From positions 782-64,781 of the forward strand of contig JAYEOW010000040.1 in assembly GCA_034723395.1 (NCBI GenBank): a stretch of 64,000 nucleotides of DNA, read 5' to 3'. The stretch comes from Candidatus Margulisiibacteriota bacterium (lineage in GTDB: Bacteria > Margulisbacteria > WOR-1 > O2-12-FULL-45-9). Position numbers and translations under genes: made by a program. Below are positions 1 through 27,352 of this stretch, one piece after another. Below the pieces are notes generated by a model that did not search any database, was not told the DNA's origin, and saw nothing but the letters and a program-made list of their open reading frames with translations. Each line of letters begins with the position of its first letter. The stretch's first letter is position 1.

Positions 1-2
1 GA

Positions 3-398
3 TTGCGCGGAAGCTTGAAAAAATTAAGGGCCTCATCCCTATTAACTAAAGATGAAGTTGTCGATCTGCCAAGATATCTGCAGGATATTTTATTGAAGGC
101 ATTGCAGGTTAAGCCCAGGCTCCGTTTTGCGACGATGGCCGAATTTCGTGAGAGCCTGGAGAAGAAAAATTTGGTTATTAAAACACCGGTAAACGAAGAG
201 TATGTGACAATTTTTGAAAATACGGTGAACCGGTTTGGGGAGGACAAAGACCAGGAAAAGGAGAAGGAAGAGGGGAAGGGAAATGGGGAGGGGCGAGGAG
301 GGATAAAGAAAGAAGTAGTTAGAAATATTGTTATTGCTTCGATCTTGCTGCTCTCCTTTATCTCTGGGCTCCTCTACGTATTTTTATTCGGGAGATAA
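3..398 (+). CDS. C-terminal fragment of a Ser/Thr protein kinase (5' end outside the window), ending in a hydrophobic TM segment
   Basis: Ends with the kinase C-lobe-like stretch LPRYLQDILLKALQVKPRLRFATMAEFRESL, a charged KE/G-rich linker and a TM helix IVIASILLLSFISGLLYVFLF. The ORF runs to the window edge. Confidence 0.5.
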   Translation: MRGSLKKLRASSLLTKDEVVDLPRYLQDILLKALQVKPRLRFATMAEFRESLEKKNLVIKTPVNEEYVTIFENTVNRFGEDKDQEKEKEEGKGNGEGRGGIKKEVVRNIVIASILLLSFISGLLYVFLFGR

Positions 399-399
399 A

Positions 400-1014
400 A
401 TGTTTGTTAGCTATACCAGCTCATATCTGATTTTTGTTATTGTGGTTTCGGTGCTGTTAAGTATCGCTTTTGCCAGGATGAAGCTCTCGTCCTTGCGGAT
501 CATCCTTCCGATCATCGCCGTGGTCCTCCTGGCGCCCCTATTTTTGGGTTATCTATATTTAACCTATTTTACAGCGATCCCTGAAGTGGTCGTTCCAGAC
601 CTGACAGGGAAAACGCTTGAGGTCGCGCTCGATGAGTTGGCGGAGTATAAATTAAAGGGGAAACGTGCCGGATCGGTTTTTGACATGAAGTTTCCTGAAG
701 GAAGGATCGTGTCGCAAAGTCCGGAGATCGGAAAGATGGTTAAAGTTGGCCGGACGATAAGCTTGATCACCAGTTCCGGCAAACAGAAAATATTCGTTCC
801 AAATTTATTAGGCCGGCCGGCGATCCAGGCCGAAGCGGTCTTAGTAGCAAAGGGGTTGCGATTGGGAAAAATTGCCCGGGAGATCGTTCCCGAAATAGGC
901 TCAGGGACAATCTTAACGCAAAGCCCGCTTCCCGGTGAAGAAGTTGATATTTCTAGTTTTGTGCACATAACGGTTACCGTTTCCCCAGAACCCGAAGTTA
1001 AGGAGGAAAATTAG
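400..1014 (+). CDS. PASTA-domain membrane protein (PknB-like extracellular sensor module encoded separately from the kinase)
   Basis: ATG at 400 is preceded by GGGAGAT. There are one to two N-terminal TM helices, then two PASTA-like repeats (PDLTGKTLEVALDELAEYKLKG...; VPNLLGRPAIQAEAVLVAKGLRLG...). It lies immediately downstream of the kinase fragment. Confidence 0.6.
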   Translation: MFVSYTSSYLIFVIVVSVLLSIAFARMKLSSLRIILPIIAVVLLAPLFLGYLYLTYFTAIPEVVVPDLTGKTLEVALDELAEYKLKGKRAGSVFDMKFPEGRIVSQSPEIGKMVKVGRTISLITSSGKQKIFVPNLLGRPAIQAEAVLVAKGLRLGKIAREIVPEIGSGTILTQSPLPGEEVDISSFVHITVTVSPEPEVKEEN

Positions 1015-1016
1015 AT

Positions 1017-1664
1017 ATGGCAATTGTTGCGCCGTCGATCTTATCGGCTGATTTTAGATGTTTAGAAAGTGAGATAAAAAAGGTTGAAGCCGAAGGGGCG
1101 GAATTGATCCATCTCGATGTCATGGATGGCCATTTTGTCCCGAATATTACAATCGGTCCACTGATCGTGAAAGCTGTTCGTAAATGCACGAAGCTGCCGA
1201 TTGAAGCGCATTTGATGATCGAAAATCCGGATAAGTATATCCCTGATTTTGCAAATGCCGGAGCAGATATTATTACCATCCACCAGGAGACTTCAAAAAG
1301 TATGATCGAAGACTTTGAGTTGATCAGGCAAAATGGGAAAAAACCGGCGATTTCGATCAATCCGGCAACTCCAGTTGAGACAATTCTTCCGATTTTAGAT
1401 CGAGTAGACATGCTTTTGATCATGTCGGTAAACCCGGGTTTTGGCGGGCAAGAATTTATGCCTGAAGTCTTACTAAAGATTAAAAAAATAAAGTCGTTAG
1501 TTGTTAGTCGTAAGTTGTCAGTTAATATAGCAATCGACGGAGGCATTAACCTCGAAACTGCGCCAAGAGCGGTAAGGGCTGGGGCAGAAATATTAGTTGC
1601 CGGATCGGCGATCTATCATGCCAAGGACTATAAGTCTGTGATTCAAAAATTTAAATCCTTATAA
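1017..1664 (+). CDS. rpe: ribulose-phosphate 3-epimerase
   Basis: ILSADF...HLDVMDGHFVPNITIGP and later MSVNPGFGGQ motifs, 215 aa, with an AAGGAGG RBS. Confidence 0.9.
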   Translation: MAIVAPSILSADFRCLESEIKKVEAEGAELIHLDVMDGHFVPNITIGPLIVKAVRKCTKLPIEAHLMIENPDKYIPDFANAGADIITIHQETSKSMIEDFELIRQNGKKPAISINPATPVETILPILDRVDMLLIMSVNPGFGGQEFMPEVLLKIKKIKSLVVSRKLSVNIAIDGGINLETAPRAVRAGAEILVAGSAIYHAKDYKSVIQKFKSL

Positions 1665-1734
1665 AATCCCCCCTCAAAAACTGAAATTTTTTACATTTGT
1701 TGCTGATAATATAATAGGTGTAAGGAGAAAAATA

Positions 1735-2688
1735 ATGAGAGTACGTTCTCAATCAATGTCGAGAAATAGATTATCGCTGGAGATGCGAAGATTTAGAGGT
1801 TGCATCCTGGGATCTGCAGCGGGAGACGCGCTGGGGGCGCCAGTTGAAGACATGACTCGTCGGCAAATAACCGGGCAATTTGGCAGGGTAACAAACTATG
1901 TTGATAATCCCCGGAAAAGTGTTCGGCCTGGGGAATGGACCGACGATACCGCCTTAACTTGGGCAACAATGAGTGCGATTGTCGATGGGGGAGAAGTTGA
2001 TGCTAAAAATATATCTTCGGCGATGAGGATGATGTTTGATTTGCATCCCGATCGCGGCTATGGCTTAACAACCAGAAGGGCTTTAAGCGGAGAGAAAGAT
2101 AGACACTTACGCCCCGCTAATGGGGCAGCCATGAGAATTGCCCCGGTAGCATTATTCTCTTGTTTGGATGTTGAAACAATGAGAACTCAGGTAATTGATA
2201 TAAGTCGGATTACACACAGACACCGCGATTCAATTGATGGGGCACTGGCAATTGCCTTTGCTATCGCTTCTGCGGCAAGAGCGGAATTGCAACCTAACAG
2301 GATTATCCTGGAGACGATTAGATTTCTTGGGGCAACAACAGAAATGAGTTATAAACTCCAAGAAGTGCAGGATTTATTAGATAATGAAGCGATCTCTACT
2401 GAGCAGGCTTTAGCGCATATTGGAACACGAAGGAATGTCCTAGAGTCGGTGGGGAGCGCTTTTTACGCATTCTTAAAATCCCCAGATGATTTTTATAGAT
2501 CTGTAACAGAAGCAGTTAATGCGGGAGGGGATACGGACACAATAGCCTCGTTAACAGGTGCTTTAAGCGGAGCCTATAACGGCCTAGAAGGGATTCCAAG
2601 GAAATGGGTGAATAACCTTGAGGCAAAACCAGCGATCGATGAATATTCACAAAGACTTTATGAGTCTGCTATGCTGCAAATTGCATAG
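1735..2688 (+). CDS. ADP-ribosylglycohydrolase family protein (DraG/ARH-like)
   Basis: GCILGSAAGDALGAPVE near the N-terminus and GGDTDTIASLTGALSGAY near the C-terminus, 317 aa. Confidence 0.75.
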   Translation: MRVRSQSMSRNRLSLEMRRFRGCILGSAAGDALGAPVEDMTRRQITGQFGRVTNYVDNPRKSVRPGEWTDDTALTWATMSAIVDGGEVDAKNISSAMRMMFDLHPDRGYGLTTRRALSGEKDRHLRPANGAAMRIAPVALFSCLDVETMRTQVIDISRITHRHRDSIDGALAIAFAIASAARAELQPNRIILETIRFLGATTEMSYKLQEVQDLLDNEAISTEQALAHIGTRRNVLESVGSAFYAFLKSPDDFYRSVTEAVNAGGDTDTIASLTGALSGAYNGLEGIPRKWVNNLEAKPAIDEYSQRLYESAMLQIA

Positions 2689-4183
2689 GATTTTCCCCGG
2701 AGTATCTAACCCGGATCCGACGATCGTTAAGGTTGAGTTCTTTTTCGATAAAAAATTCTATTCCGGTCTTTTCTATCCTTGCGTCTAATTCTGGATCGAG
2801 AATATCAAAAGCAATAACGTGGGTCGAGCGGTCTTGATATTCGGGATTAGCAATAAAAATTATATCGGCTGCTTCTTTAGGGCTTAATGATAAACCAGTT
2901 AGATATATCCCTTCTCTGACCTCACCGTTTTTGCTATGCGGTTGTGCATCTATTTGATTGTTTTGAGTTATTCTTGTGAAATTCTCAAGATTTGTATAGT
3001 GTTTGTAAAATCCAGGAATAGATTGTTCTTTTTCTTCCTTAGCGGCAATTTCTTCTATTCTATCAATAACCGATAAACCACCTAATCTTTTAACCATTAG
3101 CGGGGCAATCTCTCCATTTTCAGCTGATCGTAGAATATCTTTTAGGGCATTAATTTCGGCATTGCTAAGAAAGCTTTTCAATTTTATGTTTTTTATTCCG
3201 GCCCTTCTAAATGATCGGGCAATAAACCTCCCGTCATAATATTCAATCCCGCCAAATTCAGTTTGGTATTCCAAGGAGTCTTGTGAAAAAATTAATCTTA
3301 TTTCACGAGTATTATTCTGCTGTTGGATTAAAGTAACCAGTGAGGGAGTAAAGCGATTTAATCTTCGCATCTCATCGGTTAGTGGAGTTTGTGCCTCGCT
3401 TGCGTAATTAGTCATTGATATTTTATTTAGAGAAATTAGATGAGAATTATTTATTAATTGTAGAAAGAGCTCTGTTACACGGTTTAGTCCATTTCTTACT
3501 TTTTTTAGTCCGGGAATTGATCCGATATCTGCCTTAGCGATGACGGTGTGAATCAAAAAGAGCTGCTCAAGGGTTAGTGATTTGGGCATATACTTTTCAA
3601 AAACAGTTCTAATTTTAAAAAGACCTTCTGCGTTATTTGTTTTTCCGGAATAATAATCTTTTGACAAGTCACCTAAAAGGTCGTGGGACTTAATTAACAG
3701 CAGCGCAAAATCGAGCTCTTTGTCATTTAGTTCTCCGACCCCTGAAATAGACGGGTCCTTTAAAATATCCCGGGCAATCTTAGCTGATTTTTCTGGGTGG
3801 TTAGTATCGAAAGGGCCTTCTAATTTGCCAATATCGTGGTAAAGCATGGCGATCCTGATCAGTTCGATCAGCGACTTTTTAAATCCTGGAATTTTCGTTT
3901 TGTTGAGATGTTCGATGTCACCTGTATCTAGAAGCAGTAAGGCATTATAGGTGTGGCGCAGGGGATCAATCCCATCATGGGCATCATGTTGAGGTAAAAT
4001 TTCAAGATCTAGCAGTGGATTGCCAGCAGGGATCAAAAGTTTAAAATTCTTATATGAACCAAGAAGACGTTTAGAGATATTGTTCGATCTTAGTCCTAAT
4101 AATCCCTGCAGGCAAGCATTTGCCCGTTGTGACCTTCTTTGGGACCTTGATTGACAAAGTTTCGCTAATGGGCCGATACTCAT
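2669..4183 (-). CDS. HD-domain phosphohydrolase-like protein, function unknown
   Basis: LYHDIGKLEGP...HPEKSAKIARDIL is an HD motif. The likely ATG start is at 4183 (MSIGPLAK) with a GGAGG upstream. The gene converges on and overlaps the previous gene by about 20 nt. Confidence 0.55.
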   Translation of the reverse strand: MSIGPLAKLCQSRSQRRSQRANACLQGLLGLRSNNISKRLLGSYKNFKLLIPAGNPLLDLEILPQHDAHDGIDPLRHTYNALLLLDTGDIEHLNKTKIPGFKKSLIELIRIAMLYHDIGKLEGPFDTNHPEKSAKIARDILKDPSISGVGELNDKELDFALLLIKSHDLLGDLSKDYYSGKTNNAEGLFKIRTVFEKYMPKSLTLEQLFLIHTVIAKADIGSIPGLKKVRNGLNRVTELFLQLINNSHLISLNKISMTNYASEAQTPLTDEMRRLNRFTPSLVTLIQQQNNTREIRLIFSQDSLEYQTEFGGIEYYDGRFIARSFRRAGIKNIKLKSFLSNAEINALKDILRSAENGEIAPLMVKRLGGLSVIDRIEEIAAKEEKEQSIPGFYKHYTNLENFTRITQNNQIDAQPHSKNGEVREGIYLTGLSLSPKEAADIIFIANPEYQDRSTHVIAFDILDPELDARIEKTGIEFFIEKELNLNDRRIRVRYSGENPMQFAA

Positions 4184-4338
4184 GGTATTCTTTCGCCTCC
4201 TAATACATATCGACACTTTTTGCTCGAAATTTCACTTTTTTGGTACCTATTCAAGTATGAATACAACTCCACACTTCAGTATGGGGATTCATAGCACGCC
4301 TGAATAGTTATCTTTTTTGTGATAAAATATTAACCGCC

Positions 4339-5436
4339 ATGTGGTCTGAAGATGATATAAGGTTTATGCGTGAAGCGCACTCCCTGGCCGAATCTGCCGA
4401 AGGGAGAACAACTCCTGACCCGATGGTCGGGGCGGTTTTGGTCAAGGGTGGTCGCATTGTTTCTATGGGATATCACGGTGAAGTTACCACTCCCCACGCC
4501 GAAGCCTGGGCTATCCAAAAGGCCGAAAAAGAAGCGAAAGGGGCTACCCTTTATGTAAACCTTGAACCCTGTTCCCATTTTGGCAATAATCCTCCGTGCG
4601 CAAAACTGATTGCGGACGCCGGAATAAAAGAGGTCATCGTGTCGATGCGCGATCCAAATCCATTGGTGAGAGGGAAGGGATTCAGGATCCTTAAACGGGC
4701 AGGAGTTAAGGTTAGGGTCGGTCTGCTCGAGGAAGAGGCAAAACGTTTGAATGAAGTATTTATAAAATATATAACTACCAAAATGCCATTTGTCGCGATA
4801 AAAGCGGCGATGACTATCGATGGAAAGATAGCGACCAAGACCGGTGCCAGCCGTTGGGTGGCGGGAAAGGCCTCACGCCGTTATGCCCATCATATGCGCA
4901 ACAATTATGACGCGATCTTGGTCGGGCTCAATACGGTTTTGGTTGATAATCCGAAACTAACTGTAAGGTTGGTTAAGAAAATTAAAAATCCTATTAGGAT
5001 TGTTCTAGATGCTTATGCGAGGACACCGTTAAAGGCGGATGTTTTAGGTAATGGGGCGAGAACGATCATTATTGTTGGGCCTAGAGCTCCAAAGAAAAAG
5101 ATCGACGCCTTAAGAAAAAAAGGCGCAGAGATATTATCGATAAGAACAAAAAAAGCTAGGATCGACATGAAGGCCTTGATGAGGAAATTAGCAAAAATGC
5201 AGATCACCAGTGTTTTAGTCGAAGGTGGGGGAGAAGTGGTCGCCTCGGCGATTGAAGCGGGAGTTGCCGATAAAGCGTATTTTTTCCTTGCCCCCAAGAT
5301 CTTTGGCGGGAGAGATGCGAAGACAGGAGTGGAGGGGGAGGGAGTAAGATTTCCCTCACAGGCGGTTTGGTTAAGGAATGTTCATATAGAACACTTGGAA
5401 GAAAATATGCTGGTTACCGGATATCTTCAAAAATAG
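4339..5436 (+). CDS. ribD: bifunctional riboflavin biosynthesis deaminase/reductase
   Basis: The deaminase zinc motif HAEAWAI...LEPCSH is followed by a reductase domain, 365 aa. Confidence 0.9.
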   Translation: MWSEDDIRFMREAHSLAESAEGRTTPDPMVGAVLVKGGRIVSMGYHGEVTTPHAEAWAIQKAEKEAKGATLYVNLEPCSHFGNNPPCAKLIADAGIKEVIVSMRDPNPLVRGKGFRILKRAGVKVRVGLLEEEAKRLNEVFIKYITTKMPFVAIKAAMTIDGKIATKTGASRWVAGKASRRYAHHMRNNYDAILVGLNTVLVDNPKLTVRLVKKIKNPIRIVLDAYARTPLKADVLGNGARTIIIVGPRAPKKKIDALRKKGAEILSIRTKKARIDMKALMRKLAKMQITSVLVEGGGEVVASAIEAGVADKAYFFLAPKIFGGRDAKTGVEGEGVRFPSQAVWLRNVHIEHLEENMLVTGYLQK

Positions 5437-6812
5437 AGATCGCGCTCTCCTTTTTCGATCCTTTTTATTCGATTGACAACCTCATCGCGCAGTTTAGCGG
5501 ATTTCATCCCTTTAAGAGCATTATTAATTGCTTCTTCACCCTTTTTCTTTGTCTTTTCAGTTGCATAATCTTCCAGATATTCTTTTAAGGTAAGGATCGC
5601 GTTAGGTGTGCAGTAATTCTGGATAAACCCCGGCTTGGCCAGCTCCATAAAATGTTCGCCGGTCCGGCCCAGGCGGTAACAACCGGTGCAAAAGGACGGC
5701 GTGTAACCGCTTTCGCAAAGCTCGCGCATAACTTCATCCAAAGAGCGGGTATCGCCCAATTTAAACTGCTGCCGGTCGCTCTCTTGTTCTTCCAATTGTT
5801 CGGTGTAACCCTTGAGCTCTATCCGTGATCCCGCATCGATTTGAGAGCAGCCGAGCTCAATGACCTCTTTTCTGATTTTTGGGTTCTCTCTGGCGGTCAG
5901 GATCATCCCGGTGTAAGGGACGGCCAGGCGGATGATCGCGACAAGTTTTTTAAAATTGTCATCGCTTACAATATATTTATCGGATAAATTTACGTTCTGC
6001 GCCGGCTGGAGGCGTGGAAAAGAGATCGTATGCGGGCCGACATTGTATTTTTCTTCAAGATGGATAGCCTGGGAAAGAAGGCCCAAGACTTCAAACTTCC
6101 AATTGTATAGGCCAAAAAGAGCTCCGATTCCGACATCGTCGATCCCGGCCTCTTGAGCGCGGTCTAGCCCAAACAGGCGGTTGAGAAAATCTGCTTTCTT
6201 GCCGGAGGGGTGATATTTTTTATAGGTTTCCTGGTGATAGGTTTCCTGGAAGATCTGGTATGTGCCGATACCGACTTCTTTTAGCTTTTTATATCCTTCA
6301 ATCTCCATTGGGGCTGCGTTGATATTTACCCTCCGGATCTCCCCCCTGCCATTTTTTGTTGTGTAGGCGATCCTAACCGAATTAGCGATAAAATCGGCAT
6401 CATATTTAGGATGTTCACCAAAGACCAATATCAATCTTTTTTGCCCATTAGCCTCCAAGCTCTTTATCTCCCTTTTCAGCTCTTTGTCCAAAAGGGTCCG
6501 GCGTTTAACATCTTTATTTGAACAGCGGAAGGCGCAGTAGGCGCAATCATTTATACAGTCATTGCCGATATAAAGGGGAGCGAAGAGAACGATACGGTTT
6601 CCGTAAACTTTTTCTTTTAGTGTTTTTGCCCCTTTTAATATCTGGTTTAGTGTGTCGGTGTCAGTAACGTTCAGGAGGGCAGCGGTCTCTTCGAGAGAGA
6701 GCCTTTGTTTAGACAGGGATTTTTGGATAATATCTTTAACCTGCGATTTTTCAGGCCTGGTTTCTTTTAACAGGGTTTCAATCTTATTTTCGTCGATAAA
6801 TGATTTCATCAT
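5427..6812 (-). CDS. hydG: HydG-like radical SAM enzyme (ThiH/HydG family) with a C-terminal CxxC-x22-C domain
   Basis: N-terminal radical SAM motif CINDCAYC (Cx3Cx2C) in a LFAPLYIGNDC context. It is 461 aa (ThiH is about 370). The C-terminal CTGCYRLGRTGEHFMELAKPGFIQNYCTPNA matches the HydG auxiliary-cluster motif CxxCx22C. Confidence 0.7.
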   Translation of the reverse strand: MMKSFIDENKIETLLKETRPEKSQVKDIIQKSLSKQRLSLEETAALLNVTDTDTLNQILKGAKTLKEKVYGNRIVLFAPLYIGNDCINDCAYCAFRCSNKDVKRRTLLDKELKREIKSLEANGQKRLILVFGEHPKYDADFIANSVRIAYTTKNGRGEIRRVNINAAPMEIEGYKKLKEVGIGTYQIFQETYHQETYKKYHPSGKKADFLNRLFGLDRAQEAGIDDVGIGALFGLYNWKFEVLGLLSQAIHLEEKYNVGPHTISFPRLQPAQNVNLSDKYIVSDDNFKKLVAIIRLAVPYTGMILTARENPKIRKEVIELGCSQIDAGSRIELKGYTEQLEEQESDRQQFKLGDTRSLDEVMRELCESGYTPSFCTGCYRLGRTGEHFMELAKPGFIQNYCTPNAILTLKEYLEDYATEKTKKKGEEAINNALKGMKSAKLRDEVVNRIKRIEKGERDLYF

Positions 6813-8113
6813 CGGTTAACTCCCAGGTCGGTCGGGGCGCGCCCCATTCCCCGCAAAATAGCAAGAGTGGTCTCGATCTGCTGCTGGATCGATTCGGCAG
6901 CGTGCGCACGGTTGGGGTAGATCTCATAGTTCGGTTTAAATTTATCCGGGGTTACATTGAGCATTACCGAATTGGCTCCCGCCATCAAGCCTTGTTCCCG
7001 GGCCTTTTTATCCAAAGTCTCAAAACCGGTGGTGACCAGGATCTTTGCATTTTTAGCGTCGTTAAGCCGGGAGACAGCTAAAATCTTTAATACATTTTTG
7101 GTTGTCGGGGGAGGGGTATCTTTTAAAATACTTTCCGGATGAGGGATAAAGGGGCCGAAACTATACATTTCGGTGTGGAGCCTTTTGGCCAATAATATAT
7201 CGGCCAATAGATCTTCTTTGGTCTGTCCGGGAAGTCCGGCCAGCCCTCCGGTAATGATGAGGTAGCCCATTTTATAAGCGGCCTCGATGTGCTCGATGCG
7301 GGTGCGAAGGGTCCGTCCGGGGTGAAGTTGATTGTATAAGGATGGATTGCTGGTCTCAAAGCGCATCAGCAGTCCCCGCGCTCCGGCATCATATAGTTTT
7401 TGCAGGCCTGGGATGCCAACCTCGCCAAAGCTGATAAAGATCAAAACTGCGTGTTTTGATTTGACCGCTTTGATAATATCGGCCAGATCATCAACGGAAA
7501 AATAGTTATCTTCACCGCTCTGGAGGACCAACGCCTGGAAGCCGTGCTTTTCGACCGCGATATCGGCTGCTTCCAGGATCTCTTCCTTTGACATCCGGTA
7601 GCGATTTATACTCTTATTGGAATTTGCAATGCCGCAGTAATGGCATCCCTGCGAACAGTAATTAGATAATTCGATGATCCCGTGCACGCAGCAGGAATTG
7701 CTAAGGTGTTTTTGGCGAAGGAAGTTAGCCGATTTGTACAAAAGCTCGAGCTCTTTATCTTTTTCGAGGTTTAGCAGGTAGAGAAGTTCCGCATCCTTCA
7801 ACGGCAGGTCTTCCAATGCTTTGTCCAGGATAAGCGATAACTTTTTATCGGCTCCGCTCTTCTCAACATCAATGCGAGAGAGACGGAGGTCGAGCTCCTG
7901 CAGTTCAAAGAAGGTCTCTTTCCAGGTGGTGAGGATGGATATCGCTTCAGTTTGGGGGATGTTTTTTATTGCATAGCCCCCCTGGGCATAGATATAGTCG
8001 CCTACTTTAAGGTCGTCCAGCTCATTGATAGCCTGCTTGGTCTCTCCAAAATAGGTGAGGGTGATGATCTTCCCGTCGATTTTTTCGACCTTTCCCGGGA
8101 TGGCGTAACACAT
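6809..8113 (-). CDS. hydE: fusion protein: N-terminal HypC/HupF-like domain plus a HydE-like radical SAM (BioB family) domain
   Basis: The N-terminus MCYAIPGKVEKIDG...VGDYIYAQGGYAI matches the HypC signature (MC-AIP, VGDY..V..G.AI). It is followed by CSQGCHYCGIANSNKSINRYRMSKEEILEAA...LVLQSGED (Cx3Cx2C with a YCG..N...RYR HydE-type context). The 434-aa ORF is continuous and starts 4 nt after the stop of the HypA-like gene. Confidence 0.65.
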   Translation of the reverse strand: MCYAIPGKVEKIDGKIITLTYFGETKQAINELDDLKVGDYIYAQGGYAIKNIPQTEAISILTTWKETFFELQELDLRLSRIDVEKSGADKKLSLILDKALEDLPLKDAELLYLLNLEKDKELELLYKSANFLRQKHLSNSCCVHGIIELSNYCSQGCHYCGIANSNKSINRYRMSKEEILEAADIAVEKHGFQALVLQSGEDNYFSVDDLADIIKAVKSKHAVLIFISFGEVGIPGLQKLYDAGARGLLMRFETSNPSLYNQLHPGRTLRTRIEHIEAAYKMGYLIITGGLAGLPGQTKEDLLADILLAKRLHTEMYSFGPFIPHPESILKDTPPPTTKNVLKILAVSRLNDAKNAKILVTTGFETLDKKAREQGLMAGANSVMLNVTPDKFKPNYEIYPNRAHAAESIQQQIETTLAILRGMGRAPTDLGVNR

Positions 8114-8115
8114 AA

Positions 8116-8358
8116 TTATTCACAGTCGAAAGATACCAGTCTAAGCTCCCTGGCATCGCTATTTTCGATCTCAACTTCTGCTCCTTCGACAATCGTCCCT
8201 TTTGTCTTTTCCTTAAAAAAGTGAAGTAAGATCTCGGGATTGATTTCTGTATATTTGCCCATTTTTATATAGACCTTACATATCTTTTTGGCATTATTTT
8301 CCTCGCCACGTTTAATAATATCTCCCAAAAGATCTTTTAACAGGTGCATTTCATGCAT
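8116..8358 (-). CDS. hypA: HypA-like hydrogenase nickel-insertion protein, N-terminal domain only (no zinc finger)
   Basis: MHEMHLLKDLLGDI...GAEVEIENSDARELRLV parallels HypA through the EIEEVP region. The ORF stops after 80 aa with a single Cys. The two CxxC pairs of canonical HypA (about 113 aa) are absent. Confidence 0.5.
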   Translation of the reverse strand: MHEMHLLKDLLGDIIKRGEENNAKKICKVYIKMGKYTEINPEILLHFFKEKTKGTIVEGAEVEIENSDARELRLVSFDCE

Positions 8359-8810
8359 TTTAACAACTCCTCCGCGGCAACCTTAACCTCACCGCTCATT
8401 TTTTCTCCAAGTGCAATATTTTTGGATTGAACTCCAATAAATAAAACTTTCGATCCGGTGTCATCGGCAATGATCTTGCTGATAACTCTTAGCGGAAAGG
8501 CGTGAGTGCTTAAGGTGCTATCAGGGATCGCTTCTTCCGGGATTATTCTTACTTCTCCAGCCGCCCCTCCAAAATCGGCCGCGTCGATAATAACCGTTTT
8601 TGCCGGTTTATAATCAACCGCCTTATCAACAACATTTTCCGGTTTATCTCCCGCATCTAAGAGAAGATAGCCATTACCGGTTTGTTTGAATTTGCCAGCG
8701 ATATAAGGACCGAGTCCATCATCAGAGCGCAGGGAGTTTCCCACGGTGATGATGAGCGTAATTCCTGCTTTAGACGCTTTAAGGGCCTCTTTTACTTCAG
8801 AGGTTAACAA
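8337..8810 (-). CDS. hydrogenase maturation endopeptidase (HycI/HyaD/FrhD family)
   Basis: ITVGNSLRSDDGLGPYIA matches the GNxLxxDDGxG protease motif. It lies directly downstream of the large subunit and uses a non-ATG (TTG) start overlapping the large-subunit stop. Confidence 0.75.
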   Translation of the reverse strand: MLTSEVKEALKASKAGITLIITVGNSLRSDDGLGPYIAGKFKQTGNGYLLLDAGDKPENVVDKAVDYKPAKTVIIDAADFGGAAGEVRIIPEEAIPDSTLSTHAFPLRVISKIIADDTGSKVLFIGVQSKNIALGEKMSGEVKVAAEELLKCMKCTC

Positions 8811-10134
8811 ACTTCACGTCCAGGAAATGCGCGGAACAGGAGATACAGGGATCATAAGCCCTGACCAGCATCTCAAGGGCCAAGGTTATCTCTTCATCGC
8901 TTTTATCTAGAATTTCCGGTACCAGCTTTTTCATATCGTGTTCGATATTGTTAACATTTTGATTGGTGGGAATAACGCAATTGGCTTTTTGGATGATCCC
9001 TTTTTCGTCAACTTCGTAGTTGTGGAATAATATTCCACGCGGAACTTCTACGGCGCCAACGCCATTGCCGGGCTTGACCGGAATGGTCCCTTTTTCGTTT
9101 AATCCGACAATTACTGTCTCATCCCGATTGATCCCGTTTTTCTTAAGATCTTCCATGATCTGGATCGAATCTTCAAGCGAATGGACGCATTCGACCAGTT
9201 GGGCGGCGGTGTTTAAATATGGATTGATACATTTTGGTTTTAAGCCGACCGCATCGGCGACCGCCTTGGCCTTTGGATGTAGTTTACCGGCATTCAAGTT
9301 AAATCGAGCCAGGGCCCCGACCGCGTAAGAGTCGCGGCTCAGCTTGGCATGCTTTGCCGAAGAGTGGGGGACGACGAATTCATTGGTGATCTTCTTGTAA
9401 TCTTTTTTGTTCATCCTTACCCCGTCAGTCGATCCTACTTCCCCGCTAAGCATCGGATATTCGGCGTCGTCGCTTACCAGCCCGACATATTCGGTATCCC
9501 TTTCAAATTCGGGGAACTTTAAGGTTGCCGCAAGCTCAACCGTGGCTTCCATATCCGGGCGCATATTGTAAAGAATGTTCAGCATGGCGTCCAGATCTTT
9601 TTCTTTAGGAAGCTTGGTGAATCCCCCTACAATCGAGGAGATCGGGTGGACATGCCGGCCGACCAGGAGATCACAGACATCATTGCTGGCCTTTTTCATC
9701 CTAAGGGCGCGGCGGACAACTTTATTGTGCGTATCAATCAGCGGAACAAAGCTTTTTACCCCCAAAAGATCGGGAGCGACCAGTAAATATATATGCAGGA
9801 GGTGGCTGTCTAGGTTTTCCATGTGCAGCAGGAATTTTCGCAGCTTGATCGTCTGCTCCGACGGAGTAAAACCGATCGCATCTTCCGCCGCCTGGATGGA
9901 GGCCAAAGTGTGGCCGCAGGAGCATATCCCGCAGATCCGGCAAGTGATGTGCTGGGCCTCAAAGATCGAACGCCCCTGGAGCATCCCCTCAAAAAATCGG
10001 GGAGCTTCGACGATCTGCAGCTGGCAGGTCTTTAATTCACCGTTCTTAACGTCGACAACAATATTTCCGTGGCCTTCGACCCGGGTCAAATATTCAACAT
10101 TTACACATACATTTCTTTTACTCATGATTGTCAT
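8797..10134 (-). CDS. [NiFe] hydrogenase large (alpha) subunit, group 3 (cytoplasmic, cofactor-coupled)
   Basis: RVEGHG near the N-terminus, the RICGICSCGH (RxCGxC) N-terminal Ni ligand motif, and the C-terminal DPCISCSAH (DPCxxCxxH) motif followed by a 9-aa extension removed by the protease. 445 aa. Confidence 0.9.
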   Translation of the reverse strand: MTIMSKRNVCVNVEYLTRVEGHGNIVVDVKNGELKTCQLQIVEAPRFFEGMLQGRSIFEAQHITCRICGICSCGHTLASIQAAEDAIGFTPSEQTIKLRKFLLHMENLDSHLLHIYLLVAPDLLGVKSFVPLIDTHNKVVRRALRMKKASNDVCDLLVGRHVHPISSIVGGFTKLPKEKDLDAMLNILYNMRPDMEATVELAATLKFPEFERDTEYVGLVSDDAEYPMLSGEVGSTDGVRMNKKDYKKITNEFVVPHSSAKHAKLSRDSYAVGALARFNLNAGKLHPKAKAVADAVGLKPKCINPYLNTAAQLVECVHSLEDSIQIMEDLKKNGINRDETVIVGLNEKGTIPVKPGNGVGAVEVPRGILFHNYEVDEKGIIQKANCVIPTNQNVNNIEHDMKKLVPEILDKSDEEITLALEMLVRAYDPCISCSAHFLDVKFVNL

Positions 10135-10867
10135 TTTCCCTGCATTTGTTATACATATTCATCTTGTTTTTGATCAGGTCCATCGGGATTTTATATTTTT
10201 TGATCACATCGATCGCGCCATTTTCATTTGGATTGCTTACCATCCCCCGGCATCCATAGCAGATATTGCCATTATTAATACACCAGGAGTTGCAGCCGGC
10301 GCGCGTGATCGGCCCCAAACAGGTGATCCCCTTTTGGTAGAGGCAGACGTTTTCATTTAATTTGCATTCAACGCAGACCGAATAATCAGGGACATCATAA
10401 GGGAGGCCGGCGAGGGCGGCCTTTAGTACTTTAACAAATTCCGGGATATAGACCGGGCAGCCGTGTACCAGGTAATCAACTTTTACCACCTGGGGGACCG
10501 AGCGGGTCTCGATTGTTTCGAAAAATTTAGCGTCTTTTCCGTACACCTCTTTACGGATATCACCCAGTTTAAAATTATTCTTCATCCCGTTGACCCCGCC
10601 GATGGTAGCGCAGGAGCCGTAGGCGATTAGGACCTTTGATCTTTCGCGGATTTTCTTAATCCGTTCGATGGCATGCGGAGTAGTTATGCTTCCCTCGACA
10701 ACGGCCACATCAAAATCCTGGTCCCATTTTTCGCTCATTACTTCACGAAACTCAACCACGTCGATCGCACCTAAAACGTCAAGGAGCAGCTTTCCCATGT
10801 TGGCGACCTGCAGCTGGCATCCCTCGCAGCAGGCGAAATCAAAAAATGCTACTTTGGGTTTTCCCAT
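10118..10867 (-). CDS. [NiFe] hydrogenase small (delta) subunit, group 3b type
   Basis: MGKPKVAFFDFACCEGCQLQ is the typical start of sulfhydrogenase delta / MvhG-like small subunits, with multiple FeS cysteine clusters, 249 aa. Confidence 0.8.
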   Translation of the reverse strand: MGKPKVAFFDFACCEGCQLQVANMGKLLLDVLGAIDVVEFREVMSEKWDQDFDVAVVEGSITTPHAIERIKKIRERSKVLIAYGSCATIGGVNGMKNNFKLGDIRKEVYGKDAKFFETIETRSVPQVVKVDYLVHGCPVYIPEFVKVLKAALAGLPYDVPDYSVCVECKLNENVCLYQKGITCLGPITRAGCNSWCINNGNICYGCRGMVSNPNENGAIDVIKKYKIPMDLIKNKMNMYNKCRENDNHE

Positions 10868-10869
10868 CT

Positions 10870-11706
10870 TTATAAGGCCTCTTTTATATCTTTGATTTTA
10901 TCGTAGCTAAAAACCGGCCCGTCCTGGCAGCAATAAACATTGCCGATCTGGCAGTGTCCGCACTTGCCCAGGCCGCATTTCATATGGCGTTCAAGCGATA
11001 CCAGAATTTGTCGTTCCGGGATCTCTTTTTTGAGCAGTTCCGCTATCACGAACTTGTACATGACCGGAGGGCCGACAACAACGGCAAAGGTCCTTTCCGG
11101 TTCCAGGGTGATGCCGGGAATAAGAGACGTGATCAAGCCGACATTGCCTTTCCAGTCCGGGTCAGCCTGGTCGACAGTGCAGTTGAGTTTTACGTCCAAG
11201 CGCTTGTTCCAGTCGTCGACTTCATCATTGAAGAGCATATTCTGCGGGGTCTTGCAGCCCAGCAGTATGTCCACCTTGCCGAAATCCCGGCGGTTATCTA
11301 TCACATAATTGATAAGCGAGCGCAGCGGCACAAGTCCAAGCCCCGCCGCCACAAAAAGCAGGTCATTGCCTTCGAGGATCCTGACCGGGAAACCCTTGCC
11401 AAACGGGCCGCGAATGCCAACTTCATCACCAGCCTCCAGTTTATGCAGGGCGCCGGTAAATTTACCGGTATTTCTAACAACTAGCTCAAAAGAACCACGC
11501 TTAGTGGGGGAGGAGGAAACGGAGATAGGAGCTTCACCCACACCTAACAAAGAAACCTCAACGAACTGGCCTGGCTCATGGTCCAGGCTTTCGCCTCCAG
11601 GCAGCTCGATCTCAAAGTACTTTTCCGTCTCGGTCATCTGTTTGGTGCGCAGGACCTTGCTTTTTTTTATCTCGTATTCTGAGTCTTTCAGTTCAATCTG
11701 TTCCAT
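10870..11706 (-). CDS. hydrogenase gamma subunit: FAD/NAD(P)-binding oxidoreductase with a C-terminal [2Fe-2S] (PyrK-like)
   Basis: Ferredoxin-reductase-type fold (GPFG...; LLFVAAGLGLVP) with C-terminal CGLGKCGHCQIG...CC cysteines, 278 aa, in the beta-gamma-delta-alpha order. Confidence 0.75.
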   Translation of the reverse strand: MEQIELKDSEYEIKKSKVLRTKQMTETEKYFEIELPGGESLDHEPGQFVEVSLLGVGEAPISVSSSPTKRGSFELVVRNTGKFTGALHKLEAGDEVGIRGPFGKGFPVRILEGNDLLFVAAGLGLVPLRSLINYVIDNRRDFGKVDILLGCKTPQNMLFNDEVDDWNKRLDVKLNCTVDQADPDWKGNVGLITSLIPGITLEPERTFAVVVGPPVMYKFVIAELLKKEIPERQILVSLERHMKCGLGKCGHCQIGNVYCCQDGPVFSYDKIKDIKEAL

Positions 11707-11707
11707 T

Positions 11708-12769
11708 TTAACCTCTTCCTGCTTTGGTGTCTTTAATATCTTGTTCTTCGACCAGTTGGGTCAGCGTTTCTTTTAGGTTGATCTCAGCCATACAGGTCCG
11801 GCTGCAGCGGCCGCAGCCCGTGCAGAATAATCTTGAAAACTTTTCCATAGGGTATTTAAATTTTCTGTAATAGCGGTGGCGTTGACGGGCGGCGCGTTCT
11901 TCGCGAAAACTTTCGCCTCCAGCGACCTTGGCAAAGCCTTCGTTCTGGCAGGAATCCCAGCGTCGGTAGCGTTTACCAGTCTTCAGGTCGAGGTTTGGCT
12001 CATCGACTACGTCAAAGCAGTAGCAGGTAGGGCAGACATTAGTGCAGTTGCCGCAGGCCAAACATTTTTCACCCAGTTGTTCCCAGACCTTGCTGTTATA
12101 GCTTTTATCGAACATTTCCGGGATCTTTTCGTGGACGACCGGCACCTCGTTGGCAAAGATCTTTCTTTTCTCTTCCCTGAGCGCGTCCAAAGCTTTTAGG
12201 TCGGGTGGAGTGGCTTCAGCAAAAAGTTTGCTTTTCTCGATTATTGCGTCCCCGGCCTGAGTGTTAATATGGATAATATACTTGTCCCCGATATCGGTCA
12301 TAAAGAGGTCGTAACCGCCGTTTGGCGTATGGTTGTGTACCAGGCGGCAGCTGGCAAATTCATCGCAATAATCATTGCATTCATAGCCAACGATGGTGAT
12401 CTTGTTCTTGCGAATCAGATAGTTAATGTCTTTGGGGCGCTCAGAGAAAACCATATTCAAGCATTGGATGCCGGCCAGATCACAAGTATGGACGCCGAAC
12501 AGCACCATTTCTTCGCATTCCACCACCGGCTGCATATCTTGTCCTTTGCTGGTATCAAAGGTGGCCAGAGTCTCGAATTGCGGTATAAAATATTTCTTAG
12601 GCGGCAGGATGGTGGGGATGTGATCAATCGAGACCTGTTCGCCTGAGGTCACGTCTTCAAAAGCGAATTTATTGCTACCTTTGGCGACCGGGGCAACTAC
12701 CCGCTGTCCTTTGGCCAGTTCGGTGATGAACTTATCCAGGTCTGTTTTTTTTATCGTTACGTATTGCAT
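11708..12769 (-). CDS. hydrogenase beta subunit: 4Fe-4S protein (sulfite-reductase-subunit-A-like)
   Basis: CLACGNCTNVCPTCYC and CTGCGRCSRTC ferredoxin-like motifs. The likely ATG start is at 12769 (MQYVTIKK). The ORF-track start at 12787 is a TTG that lies inside the Rex box. Confidence 0.7.
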   Translation of the reverse strand: MQYVTIKKTDLDKFITELAKGQRVVAPVAKGSNKFAFEDVTSGEQVSIDHIPTILPPKKYFIPQFETLATFDTSKGQDMQPVVECEEMVLFGVHTCDLAGIQCLNMVFSERPKDINYLIRKNKITIVGYECNDYCDEFASCRLVHNHTPNGGYDLFMTDIGDKYIIHINTQAGDAIIEKSKLFAEATPPDLKALDALREEKRKIFANEVPVVHEKIPEMFDKSYNSKVWEQLGEKCLACGNCTNVCPTCYCFDVVDEPNLDLKTGKRYRRWDSCQNEGFAKVAGGESFREERAARQRHRYYRKFKYPMEKFSRLFCTGCGRCSRTCMAEINLKETLTQLVEEQDIKDTKAGRG

Positions 12770-12776
12770 AAAGGAT

Positions 12777-12794
12777 TTGTGAAACAAATCACAA
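12777..12794. promoter_or_regulatory. candidate Rex operator immediately upstream of the hydrogenase beta-subunit start
   Basis: TTGTGAAACAAATCACAA has one mismatch to the Rex consensus TTGTGAA-n4-TTCACAA. It lies 8 nt upstream of the ATG at 12769. Confidence 0.5.
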
Positions 12795-12810
12795 GCTCCG
12801 GTATACTACC

Positions 12811-12836
12811 CGAAAAAAAAGGGCTTGTCAAGCCCC
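12811..12836 (-). terminator. rho-independent terminator downstream of rex (read on the minus strand)
   Basis: The minus strand reads GGGGCTTGACAAGCCC followed by an eight-U run (plus-strand A8 at 12813-12820). Confidence 0.45.
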
Positions 12837-12869
12837 GAACCTAAATAACATATGGTCCGTGGCAGGAGA

Positions 12870-13487
12870 TTATTTAATAAAAAACGATAGGGTTTTAAGT
12901 TCCATGGCGAGATCAATATTATTTACCTTAACCTTCTTGGAAAGGGATAGTTTTACCGGAGCAAAATTTAAAATAGCTTTTATTCCGCATCCATCTAAAT
13001 GGCGGGCAGTTTCTTGGGCTGATTCGGTGGGAACGGTGAGGATGGCGATCTCGATCCCGTTGTTCCTGATCTGATCAGAGAGTGCTTTAATAGGATGACA
13101 GATAAAACCTTTAATTTTTCGTCCGATCTTCCTGGAATCATTATCAAATACTGCTATGATTTGGAAGCCAAGAGCTTGAAAACCCTTGTAGGCGGCGAGG
13201 GCAGAACCGAGATTTCCCATCCCGATAATACAGGCCTTCTTTTCATCTTCGATCCCGAGGATTTCGGCGATTTTGTTGCGCAGTCCAAGAACATCATAGC
13301 CGGACCCTCGTTTACCCAATTTACCAAAATAGGAGAGATCTTTTCTTACCTGCGAGTCACGTATCTCCATCAGGTCAGCCAGGCTTTTTGAGGAAATATT
13401 TTTGGTTCCCTGCTGGACAAGGAAATAGAGATAGCGGTAATAAAGCAATAGCCGTTGGATTGTCTTTTTTGGTATTTTTCTTTTCAT
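12870..13487 (-). CDS. rex: redox-sensing transcriptional repressor Rex
   Basis: N-terminal winged helix (IPKKTIQRLLLYYRYL) and a Rossmann NADH-binding domain with GMGNLGSALA, 205 aa. Confidence 0.85.
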   Translation of the reverse strand: MKRKIPKKTIQRLLLYYRYLYFLVQQGTKNISSKSLADLMEIRDSQVRKDLSYFGKLGKRGSGYDVLGLRNKIAEILGIEDEKKACIIGMGNLGSALAAYKGFQALGFQIIAVFDNDSRKIGRKIKGFICHPIKALSDQIRNNGIEIAILTVPTESAQETARHLDGCGIKAILNFAPVKLSLSKKVKVNNIDLAMELKTLSFFIK

Positions 13488-24986: not shown

Positions 24987-26387
24987 TTGAAGCGCCTTAA
25001 GGACTGGATGGTCGGAATTACAGCTGACGATCTTATTGAACAGATGAGCTGGGCGTGCAAAGCGGATTGTGTTTTTTGTTATCAGAAAGGGAGCCCCCCT
25101 TTTATGCGCGTGAAGATGCGCATGTCTAAGGAAGAGATCAAGACACGGCTTAAGTATTATAATGGGAAAAAGGGGCTTACATGGTGTACTCCTTATGAAA
25201 ATGACGAAGTGTTGAACAATCCATTCATTGAGAATGTGCTGAAGCAGATCCGGCGAAAAGACAAAGAGATGCTGCGGATCATTACTAATGGGGTCGCTCT
25301 TACGCCACAAATGATCGCCAAACTAAAAAAAGCTATGCCGCTATTCATTGACATATCGCTAAACAGCACAAATCCTGAGATACGCAGAAAATTGATGCGT
25401 GACTCATCCCCGGAAATCGCGATCCAGAGCATCCCCTTGCTTAGAAAGCACAAAATTCCTTTTGTAGTTAAGATCGTTGCTTGGCCGGGAGTCCCCTTTT
25501 CAGATATTGAAAAAACGATCAAGTATGCAGATAAATACGATGCTTTCCGCGTAGAAATTGGAAGCCCGGGAGTAACGCGTTACCTTCCGGATGTTTCTTT
25601 TGATTATAAGCGGCACTGGAAGAGGGTAGTTAAGTTTGTGAATTCAATAAAGCGGAAATATAACATACCTATTGTGTCTGATATTTATATTGATAAGAAT
25701 AATTATAGACGGTGGGATATTCCAGTTGTACAGGGAACCATAAAGCATTCACCGGCCTATACTCATGGAGTTAAGCCCGGAGACGTTATTGAAGAAGTGA
25801 ATGGACAGCTTGTGGATTCCCTTTTCGGGGTTTTTAGGGAATTGTTGAAGCGGCGGAAGGCGCGGTTAAAGATTCGCCGCGGCGGTAAAACTTTATTTTT
25901 TAACCTAAAAGAGAAAAAAAAGTATCCGTATCTATTTGACGGTCAAAGGATGCGGGGCCCTTTCGGGATAAGATTTAAATTAGCCAAAGAACTCATGCTT
26001 TCGGATGACGACATCATTGATATTAAGCGATTTGCTAACATTCATCGGGCGAAAAGAGTATTAGTTTTAACCTCGGCCAGGGCCTATTTCTTGATCAAAT
26101 ATAAGATGGAGAAGTTGAAACTTTTTAAAAGTAGTAATGCCCGGATAAAACTGGCGATCGCTGAAAATAAAATGTACGGCGGTAACACCAAGTGCGCGAA
26201 TTTACTGGTGGTAGATGATTATATTCATGCCGTGAAAAAGCACAAGAAGGAATTTAAGCCGGACCTGGTGGTTATTCCTTCGAGCCCCTTTAATGCCTGG
26301 GAGCGGGATGTGGTGGGGCGGGTGAACCTCGATATCGAGAGAGAGACAAAGGTCCCCGTAGAGTTTGTTTACAACGAAATACTCTAA
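24987..26387 (+). CDS. radical SAM - PDZ - DUF512 three-domain protein
   Basis: CKADCVFC is Cx3Cx2C. A PDZ-like stretch (GVKPGDVIEEVNGQLVDSLF) and a C-terminal block shared with the 26638-27219 protein (PDLVVIPSSPFNAWERDVVGRVNLDIERETKVPVEFVYNE) follow. The frame is open from 24722 with no ATG before 25008; an ATG at 24737 sits one frame off, just before an A9 run. Confidence 0.65.
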   Translation: MKRLKDWMVGITADDLIEQMSWACKADCVFCYQKGSPPFMRVKMRMSKEEIKTRLKYYNGKKGLTWCTPYENDEVLNNPFIENVLKQIRRKDKEMLRIITNGVALTPQMIAKLKKAMPLFIDISLNSTNPEIRRKLMRDSSPEIAIQSIPLLRKHKIPFVVKIVAWPGVPFSDIEKTIKYADKYDAFRVEIGSPGVTRYLPDVSFDYKRHWKRVVKFVNSIKRKYNIPIVSDIYIDKNNYRRWDIPVVQGTIKHSPAYTHGVKPGDVIEEVNGQLVDSLFGVFRELLKRRKARLKIRRGGKTLFFNLKEKKKYPYLFDGQRMRGPFGIRFKLAKELMLSDDDIIDIKRFANIHRAKRVLVLTSARAYFLIKYKMEKLKLFKSSNARIKLAIAENKMYGGNTKCANLLVVDDYIHAVKKHKKEFKPDLVVIPSSPFNAWERDVVGRVNLDIERETKVPVEFVYNEIL

Positions 26388-26624
26388 TTACTTATAAAGC
26401 TTATTGATCTTCACGCTATCCAAAAAATGAAACCCATCCACCTTCACGTCTTCTCCCTTATAAGTCAGTGCCACAATATCCATGGTTTCTTTTAGCAGGT
26501 CTTTGACGAAATCTTTAAAAGGATCCTTGCTGCGCCGTTTCTTTTTGGGGATATCCAGCTTCCAGCGTAGAATAAAGTCGCCGTTTTCGTCAAGGTTAGG
26601 ATTCGTTTGTTTTTTATTTTTCAT
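26388..26624 (-). CDS. hypothetical basic protein (78 aa from MKNKK)
   Basis: AAGGAG RBS before the ATG at 26624. No recognisable domain. Confidence 0.35.
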   Translation of the reverse strand: MKNKKQTNPNLDENGDFILRWKLDIPKKKRRSKDPFKDFVKDLLKETMDIVALTYKGEDVKVDGFHFLDSVKINKLYK

Positions 26625-26637
26625 GATGTTTCTCCTT

Positions 26638-27219: not shown

Positions 27220-27352
27220 TATATTACCAGTAATAATATCATAGGCGGGTTTGTTTATGAAATTGCGGAAAAGTTATGTGATGAATAATGAAGCAGAATA
27301 TGCGGGTCGTGGAGCCCTCCCCAACATCAAAAAGCCCCTGAAAGTGTGCTTT

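Follow-up and report, generated by a model that had tools for sequence, protein, structure and literature searches.

A HypC-HydE fusion protein encoded with HydG in [NiFe] hydrogenase operons, a candidate hybrid maturase

Introduction

The maturation systems of [NiFe] and [FeFe] hydrogenases are regarded as independent inventions, and the full set of six Hyp proteins, HypA to HypF, is considered a universal requirement of [NiFe] hydrogenases. What, then, is the role of a single protein that begins like the [NiFe] maturation chaperone HypC and continues like the [FeFe] maturase HydE? Such a protein is encoded at positions 6809 to 8113 on the minus strand of a 64,000-nucleotide stretch of DNA (here called the window; positions 782 to 64,781 of contig JAYEOW010000040.1, assembly GCA_034723395.1) from a Candidatus Margulisiibacteriota bacterium. 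The original prediction for this gene had described a fusion without known precedent and had read it as a direct transfer point for an organo-iron intermediate between two pathways. The present analysis shows that the fusion gene belongs to a conserved cassette, consisting of hycI, mini-hypA, hypC::hydE, and hydG, which is attached to [NiFe] hydrogenase operons, and the balance of evidence tips slightly toward a dedicated [NiFe] hydrogenase maturase.

Results

Domain structure and predicted fold of the fusion protein

The open reading frame (ORF) at 6809 to 8113 encodes 434 residues comprising both domains; its extent agreed to the nucleotide with the original prediction, and every motif quoted there was found. 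The N-terminal sequence of the protein is MCYAIPGKVEKIDG, and its motifs include VGDYIYAQGGYAIK, C153-SQG-C157-HY-C160-G, R171-Y-R173, and L197-QSGED. The first possible start codon of the ORF yields Met-Cys (MCYAIPG), so that the cysteine can become a free N terminus, as in HypC.

The HypC-like domain, residues 1 to 64 (7922 to 8113, minus strand), was recognized by Pfam, phmmer, alignments, and AlphaFold2 (AF2). Its match to HupF_HypC (PF01455), which spanned the whole 65-position Pfam model, bore out the predicted HypC-like N terminus with a score of 41.3 bits (gathering cutoff, 28.5 bits; E = 1.7e-10), and residues 1 to 67 matched Thermococcus kodakarensis HypC (2z1c) with an E value of 8.7e-8 in a phmmer search of PDB sequences. 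The NCBIfam HypC model TIGR00074 scored 33.8 bits on the fusion, under its cutoff of 48. Gln44 of the fusion aligns with His51 of Escherichia coli HypC; the glutamine is invariant in the family, with Thr or Ala in divergent members.

The remainder of the protein, from about residue 95 to residue 434, is a HydE-like radical S-adenosylmethionine (SAM) domain of triosephosphate isomerase (TIM) barrel type, which with the stop codon occupies 6809 to 7831 (minus strand) and was identified by NCBIfam, PDB phmmer, and Foldseek. Pfam placed Radical_SAM at residues 147 to 306 (63.8 bits); the BATS domain was not detected by Pfam in the window protein and is recorded for some close homologues. Among the NCBIfam models, HydE (TIGR03956) was the best, scoring 239.9 bits on residues 98 to 408, just under its cutoff of 254.6, with PylB (142 bits) and BioB (96 bits) far behind, along with ThiH, HmdB, and HydG. 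In the phmmer search of PDB sequences, residues 122 to 427 matched Thermotoga maritima HydE (TmHydE) with an E value of 1.5e-57. The CX3CX2C motif of the radical-SAM cluster (C153, C157, and C160; 7634 to 7657, minus strand) was invariant in the alignments.

The AF2 model of the fusion, built from 117 homologues, reached a mean predicted local distance difference test (pLDDT) score of 91.4 and a predicted template modeling (pTM) score of 0.90. The structure prediction thus recovered the two-part architecture that had been proposed, with a five-stranded HypC-like part (strands 7 to 13, 16 to 21, 24 to 29, 40 to 44, and 47 to 52, followed by a helix at 54 to 79; pLDDT, 73 to 90) and, C-terminal to it, a (beta-alpha)8 barrel of HydE type. 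In Foldseek comparisons, the predicted barrel superposed on TmHydE with TM scores of 0.94 to 0.96 and root mean square deviations of 1.5 to 1.6 Å, at 35% identity in the structural alignment. The domain assignment is confirmed, and the fusion is real.

Conservation and distribution of the fusion

A database search for the same architecture found HypC and HydE domains together in 117 homologues at 59 to 89% identity to the fusion, with both domains and the linker conserved. Both Pfam domains are present in almost every one of the 120 best database clusters (59 to 100% identity), which stem from Margulisbacteria, Saganbacteria, and Omnitrophota; the window protein itself has an identical counterpart in a Candidatus Margulisiibacteriota metagenome-assembled genome. 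In alignments of 23 and 117 members, residues M1, C2, Y3, I5, P6, and G7 were invariant and the linker was conserved. In a scan of one genome per species, a relative was encoded in 370 GTDB species genomes, belonging to Margulisiibacteriota/Saganbacteria, Omnitrophota, Brevinematales, and other Spirochaetota; after clustering at 50%, about 20 clusters aligned from residue 1 of the fusion, among them the triple-fusion clusters P0122 and P0129.

HypC is the N-terminal module in every fusion, the only order that leaves its cysteine at a free N terminus. This order was retained in HypC-HydE-HydG triple fusions, namely, the 906- and 881-residue proteins P0122 and P0129 and a 921-residue protein encoded at 10001 to 12766 of locus L040, from the closed Omnitrophota chromosome CP070797.1. 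Database names for the family are inconsistent and include “radical SAM protein,” “HydE,” “biotin synthase,” and “HypC family chaperone.” As to the novelty that the original prediction had assumed, no paper describing a HypC-HydE fusion or HydG-linked [NiFe] maturation was found in the open-access literature, but the fusion belongs to a large family already present in public genomes.

It is vanishingly improbable that the fusion is an artifact, produced from separate hypC and hydE genes by a frameshift, an overlooked stop codon, or chimeric assembly. The unusual architecture is the sole point in its favor; against it stand one uninterrupted reading frame, the confident two-domain AF2 model, and the recurrence of this architecture, its linker likewise conserved, in 117 homologues and 370 species genomes that come from numerous studies and different assemblers. 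Over positions 1 to 7733, which include hydG and the last 307 residues of the fusion, the window was 100% identical to an independent Logan assembly (L088), the junction lying outside the match. Given the conservation of the fusion and its linker across genomes, misassembly is excluded for practical purposes.

The fusion gene lies in a [NiFe] hydrogenase operon

In the window, hypC::hydE is the penultimate gene of a tight minus-strand operon in which stop and start codons overlap or nearly abut. At the head of the operon is a gene for a rex-type redox-sensing repressor (12870 to 13487; Pfam Put_DNA-bind_N and CoA_binding), followed by genes for a group 3b beta subunit (11708 to 12787; Pfam Fer4_22), a group 3b gamma subunit with FAD/NAD-binding and Fe-S assignments (10870 to 11706; Pfam), the [NiFe] hydrogenase small subunit (10118 to 10867; Pfam Oxidored_q6), and a large subunit of group 3b type (8797 to 10134). 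After these come the genes for a hycI-type large-subunit endopeptidase (8337 to 8810; TIGR00072, 99.8 bits against a cutoff of 47.45) and an 80-residue mini-HypA (8116 to 8358), then the fusion gene, and finally hydG (5427 to 6812; 461 residues; TIGR03955, 511 bits against a cutoff of 312), whose start overlaps the fusion stop by 4 nucleotides (ATGA). The large subunit carries the motifs RICGICSCGH and DPCISCSAH and a 9-residue C-terminal extension; with such ordinary RxCGxC and DPCxxCxxH motifs and the extension, it needs the standard cofactor and processing. The group 3b label is assigned from the subunit set (large, small, and two diaphorase-type subunits), the motifs, and the classing of Saganbacteria hydrogenases of this type as group 3b (PMC6349859).

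No HypB, HypD, HypE, HypF, HydF, or [FeFe] hydrogenase was found among the Pfam-scanned window ORFs (about 0.3 to 36 kb and 41.5 to 52.7 kb). Likewise, no HypB, HypD, HypE, or HypF was detected with E. coli Hyp proteins as phmmer queries against all window ORFs, the only search that covered the section from 52.7 to 63.7 kb.

Gene neighborhoods in related loci

The neighborhood was compared across 80 GTDB loci with flanks of ±10 kb (1.32 Mb), whose ORFs were searched with the window proteins and with E. coli HypA to HypF; these loci, 5 others, and the window together make up an 86-locus set. Of 75 informative loci, 60 had either hycI or hypA directly upstream of the fusion gene. A [NiFe] large-subunit gene was present at 63 of the 80 loci, and hydG was present at 44. 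Two loci had hypB, and with the E. coli Hyp queries neither hypD, hypE, hypF, nor a stand-alone hypC was found in the flanks of any of the 80. [FeFe] H-cluster motifs occurred in 2 of the 80 loci. The large subunit was of group 3b type in 51 of the 86 loci and of group 4 (membrane-bound) type in 18, and both contexts were seen, with the same gene order, in loci with precomputed Pfam annotation. Clustering of all flanking ORFs recovered only housekeeping genes (encoding RibD, Rpe, kinases, ATP synthase, and Mrp subunits) and no HypD analogue or conserved unknown partner. The KEGG tables in the supplements of PMC6349859 contain no hyp orthology identifier at all, hypA included, and are thus uninformative on the absence of hyp genes.

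The original prediction had pictured traffic between two coexisting pathways. Instead, the fusion follows [NiFe] genes, hycI, and hypA and is accompanied by hydG, which suggests one dedicated hybrid pathway. In E. coli, hypD and hypE come after hypC. At locus L020, the order is hypA-hypB-hypC::hydE, with hydG adjoining on the opposite strand; HydE and HydG here occupy the place where hypD to hypF often come after hypC. In three Omnitrophota loci (L035, L053, and L058), the fusion gene comes after [NiFe] genes and an [FeFe] hydrogenase gene cluster lies a few kilobases further on; in L035, this cluster is followed by hydG and a canonical 358-residue hydE. At locus L067, hydF-hydG-hydE (366-residue HydE) is followed by the [NiFe] operon and then the fusion gene. 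The arrangement of L035 and L067 implies that genomes with both classes of hydrogenase carry a distinct HydE paralogue for each.

A few stand-alone relatives of the HydE-like domain exist that have the Cys-x-His motif described below and no HypC; at two loci, such a gene is followed by hydG. One pair (L092, 1 to 2693) comes directly after a [NiFe] large-subunit gene. The contig of the other (L091, 4766 to 7208) looks archaeal and includes an archaeal histone gene, and no hydrogenase was found within 8 kb of this pair. An 89-residue ORF before the L091 hydE gene, considered as a split HypC, was rejected, as it encodes a helix-turn-helix-like protein.

Two further cassette genes have features of their own. 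The mini-HypA of the window matches positions 1 to 69 of the 112-position Pfam HypA profile; it keeps the nickel-binding MHE N terminus and, having no zinc module, ends where the CxxC...CxxC module of normal HypA (about 113 residues) would start. Genes for an 80-residue mini-HypA also lie at 9722 to 9964 of L001, 9732 to 9974 of L003, 9756 to 9998 of L005, 1 to 243 of L089, and 3888 to 4130 of L090, and with its length conserved across phyla, the short form is no truncation artifact. Near mini-hypA, hypB is almost always absent. The rex-type gene is conserved in the cassette at 42 of the 86 loci and in Omnitrophota lies between the fusion gene and hydG (e.g., 11321 to 11977 of L001); the presence of a Rex-type NADH/NAD-sensing repressor suggests that expression of both the hydrogenase and the maturases responds to redox state.

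Residue pattern of the HydE-like domain

Canonical HydE (101 representatives) and the fusion clade (61 members) were compared residue by residue in TmHydE numbering. The cluster cysteines, E58, R/K159, M224, M291, T268/T269, Y306, and K309 (Lys or Arg) were common to both groups; the equivalents in the window fusion are E148 (E58), M316 (M224), M384 (M291), T361/T362 (T268/T269), Y399 (Y306), and R402 (K309). In HydE, residues E58, M224, M291, T268/T269, Y306, and K309 act on complex-B and retain the Fe(I) product; this product, Fe(I)S(CO)2(CN), is held by the methionine pair M224 and M291 (PMC10114646, PMC11826987).

A second set of residues, R54, T134, and R155, is reported to contact the cyanides inside the cavity that has been proposed as the site of dimerization of two Fe(I) units (PMC11826987). 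Canonical HydE keeps these residues in 93, 90, and 89 of the 101 representatives, respectively, whereas all three were replaced in every fusion-clade sequence: R54 by His (61 of 61), T134 mostly by Phe or Cys (58 of 61), and R155 by Gly or Ala (61 of 61). In the window protein, the corresponding residues are His144, Phe226, and Gly247. H52 was also replaced, by Cys in all 61 sequences, so that the clade-specific stretch C141-C142-V-H144 (7682 to 7693, minus strand) at the start of barrel strand beta-1 carries C142 and H144 throughout the clade. This Cys-x-His pair was present in 61 of 61 fusion-clade sequences and all 20 HypC-bearing representatives, and it was present in none of 122 canonical HydE sequences. 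A sequence search of 50% clusters separated the groups in the same way, with fusions scoring at least 272 bits and canonical HydE sequences lacking Cys-x-His scoring at most 229 bits. The predicted BioB/HydE-type radical-SAM identity therefore held insofar as HydE is the best-matching family, but the domain falls below the HydE equivalog cutoff and belongs to a separate clade that has lost R54, T134, and R155 and gained Cys-x-His.

The HydG partner

The HydG encoded after the fusion in the window matched TiHydG (4wcx) with 520 bits and has the C-terminal CX2CX22C motif. Its residue Q248 (in LLSQAIHLEE) aligns with TiHydG His265, which binds the dangler iron as its protein ligand. The same Gln was found in the independent assembly L088, and His occupies the position in the two nearest relatives (L089 and L090) and in a further 47 HydG partners.

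Many Omnitrophota partner HydGs (about 499 residues; L001 [11981 to 13480], L024, L027, L040, L080, and others), mostly encoded beside group 4 hydrogenases, have C-T-A-G-Y-R-C-G-R-T-G-x-C in place of the canonical C-x-x-C-Y-R-x-G-R-T-G. This variant motif implies an altered cysteine spacing for the auxiliary cluster.

Other features of the window

Outside the hydrogenase operon, an ADP-ribosylglycohydrolase gene (1735 to 2688, plus strand) is convergent with a gene at 2669 to 4216 (minus strand) for a 515-residue protein that combines an HD domain with a weak, subthreshold match to the ADP-ribosyltransferase toxin domain Tox-ART-HYD1; to judge from their domains, the two products may form a writer/eraser pair for ADP-ribosylation. 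In the segments 24987 to 28357 and 28855 to 30245, two radical-SAM genes, one with PDZ and DUF512 domains and one with SPASM, flank a DUF512 fragment, and an AbiEii/AbiEi toxin-antitoxin pair adjoins these genes. A 1,634-residue ORF occupies 36038 to 40942 (minus strand). Two adjacent ORFs of 258 and 367 residues at 41497 to 43413 (minus strand) had no Pfam match.

Discussion

A hybrid maturation route

The evidence makes it somewhat probable that the fusion protein is a dedicated [NiFe] hydrogenase maturase, part of a hybrid route that would deliver a mononuclear Fe-CO/CN unit through the fused HypC domain. A hybrid route is proposed because the nickel-insertion and proteolysis parts of the cassette are conventional, HypD, HypE, and HypF were not seen, and HypC::HydE and HydG stand in their place. 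Beyond the architecture, conservation, synteny, and residue pattern, which were observed, we infer each of the chemical steps that follow and the independence from HypDEF. HydG would cleave tyrosine and build a cysteine-chelated Fe-CO/CN unit, as its established mechanism suggests. The HydE-like domain would bind this unit in the conserved upper pocket and strip the cysteine backbone by radical chemistry in the manner of canonical HydE, a step to which the conserved equivalents of E58, M224, M291, T268/T269, Y306, and K309 point. The remodeled lower cavity would then retain a mononuclear Fe(CO)x(CN)y on Cys142 and His144, beside Met316, instead of a di-iron product. From there, the unit would pass to the free N-terminal Cys2 of the fused HypC, which would insert it into the apo large subunit; such an organo-iron hand-off between the fused domains can reasonably be inferred. 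Nickel would enter through mini-HypA (occasionally HypB), and HycI would trim the C terminus of the large subunit. HydG and the HydE domain would in this way take over the jobs of HypD, HypE, and HypF and of the anaerobic CO source.

The most far-reaching form of this proposal, a HypD/HypE/HypF-independent route in which all three diatomic ligands of the [NiFe] site come from tyrosine via HydG, the HydE domain releases an Fe(CO)(CN)2-type unit, and HypC inserts it, is tentative, with chances a little short of even.

Several observations weigh against the hybrid route. The HydG product is Fe(CO)2(CN) and the [NiFe] site holds Fe(CO)(CN)2, so that a stoichiometry change or a ligand exchange must be assumed. 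The HypC domain of the fusion is without the equivalent of His51, which E. coli HypC requires for its function on the HypCD scaffold (PMC12134894). The HydG of the window, having Gln at the dangler-iron His265 position, may be impaired, possibly in a strain-specific manner, and hydG is not always adjacent to the fusion gene. Some Omnitrophota carry a complete hydEFG set in the vicinity, along with an [FeFe] hydrogenase, and there the maturases may be shared. The absence of hypD, hypE, and hypF applies to the ±10-kb flanks and the 64-kb window, so that these genes may lie elsewhere in the genomes, and the figure of 0 in 80 loci is a raw count. The neighborhood counts of PMC12727194, whose design pools several query genes, were set aside as a quantitative control.

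Alternative explanations

The strongest rival, though an unlikely one, is that the fusion and HydG are an add-on, an anaerobic analogue of HypX that in the absence of oxygen contributes nothing beyond CO or an Fe-CO unit, with HypD, HypE, and HypF encoded elsewhere in the genome adding the cyanides. This would dispose of the stoichiometry problem, the search for hypDEF was confined to the flanks and the window, HydG makes CO, and the anaerobic CO source of the standard pathway is unsolved (PMC12134894). However, HydG also makes cyanide, which would render a second cyanide pathway redundant; hypD, hypE, and hypF were unseen in the 1.32 Mb surrounding the 80 cassettes, even though hycI, hypA, and in some cases hypB did occur in it; and at L020 the fusion gene and hydG stand where hypD to hypF would be expected after hypB. 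That the HypC domain lacks the histidine required by E. coli HypC on the HypCD scaffold also speaks against the add-on. A dedicated [NiFe] maturase is therefore preferred to an accessory CO supplier.

The HydE-like domain might instead have diverged to a different radical-SAM reaction, such as sulfur or small-molecule chemistry for another metalloprotein, its fused partner being merely HypC-like. Scores under the HydE equivalog and TIGR00074 cutoffs, the remodeled lower pocket, and the stand-alone Cys-x-His HydE and HydG of L091, with no hydrogenase within 8 kb, are in keeping with this idea, which is nonetheless decidedly improbable given the tight link to HydG (covalent triple fusions included), the strong link to [NiFe] operons with hycI and hypA, the retention of the residues that bind and process complex-B, and the invariance of the N-terminal Cys that defines HypC function. 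A role as a HydE variant for an [FeFe] hydrogenase encoded elsewhere, with the HypC-like barrel as a carrier to HydF or HydA and an incidental [NiFe] neighborhood, is very improbable. It would suit the facts that the closest characterized relative is HydE, that the partner is a bona fide HydG, and that some Omnitrophota loci have an [FeFe] hydrogenase and hydF within 10 kb. Yet in L035 and L067 a separate canonical hydE, whose product has no HypC and has an R54/T134/R155-type pocket, lies near the [FeFe] cluster or hydF while the fusion gene follows hycI/hypA; H-cluster motifs occurred in just 2 of the 80 loci; and Saganbacteria carry the cassette with no [FeFe] hydrogenase reported. The residues of the proposed di-iron assembly cavity are lost, and [NiFe] hydrogenases of two unrelated groups, 3b and 4, have the cassette beside them. 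Service to a [NiFe] hydrogenase by the hybrid route thus remains the favored explanation.

Significance

In the 2025 review of [NiFe] cofactor biosynthesis, Hyp proteins are the sole factors listed, and the origin of CO under anaerobic conditions is singled out as the key open question (PMC12134894). The cassette offers a concrete candidate for a second solution to [NiFe] maturation, placed beside operons in hundreds of anaerobic species, in which tyrosine would be the source of CO and probably of cyanide. If the proposal is true, [NiFe] and [FeFe] maturation would be connected mechanistically and evolutionarily, the “HydE” and “HydG” annotations in lineages lacking [FeFe] hydrogenases would be accounted for, and a compact set of possibly four accessory genes would be available for heterologous [NiFe] hydrogenase production. 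Should hypDEF lie elsewhere in these genomes, the system would still be a candidate for the missing anaerobic CO supplier.

Comparison with known systems

The N-terminal domain resembles HypC/HybG/HupF in size, in fold, in its Met-Cys-x-x-(I/V)-Pro-Gly start, in a locus after hypA (sometimes hypB) beside [NiFe] genes, and in its presumed role as a carrier of an Fe-CO/CN unit to the large subunit. Unlike those chaperones, it is joined to a radical-SAM enzyme, has Gln for His51, scores below the TIGR00074 cutoff, and has no hypD, hypE, or hypF nearby. The C-terminal domain shares its fold, CX3CX2C motif, catalytic residues, and hydG neighbor with HydE (T. maritima structures 3cix, 7o1o, and 7o1t) but differs in its N-terminal HypC, in the replacement of H52, R54, T134, and R155 by Cys, His, Phe or Cys, and Gly, in lacking the C-terminal auxiliary-cluster cysteines, in its linkage to [NiFe] rather than [FeFe] genes, and in a score just under the TIGR03956 cutoff. 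The neighboring gene product resembles HydG, which produces the Fe(Cys)(CO)2(CN) synthon as a tyrosine lyase, in being full length and having CX2CX22C; unlike known HydG, it is paired with a [NiFe] operon and has Gln at the His265 position, and Omnitrophota partners often have the variant cysteine motif.

HypX, the aerobic CO supplier in [NiFe] maturation, provides a parallel as an accessory enzyme that gives a diatomic ligand outside the core HypA to HypF set. Its fold and chemistry are unrelated, however (formyl-tetrahydrofolate/coenzyme A decarbonylation versus radical-SAM tyrosine cleavage), and HypX works with HypCD. The covalent coupling of consecutive hydrogenase maturases has a precedent in the HydEF protein of Chlamydomonas, a natural HydE-HydF maturase fusion; whereas algal HydEF unites two [FeFe] maturases, the fusion described here joins parts from two hydrogenase classes.

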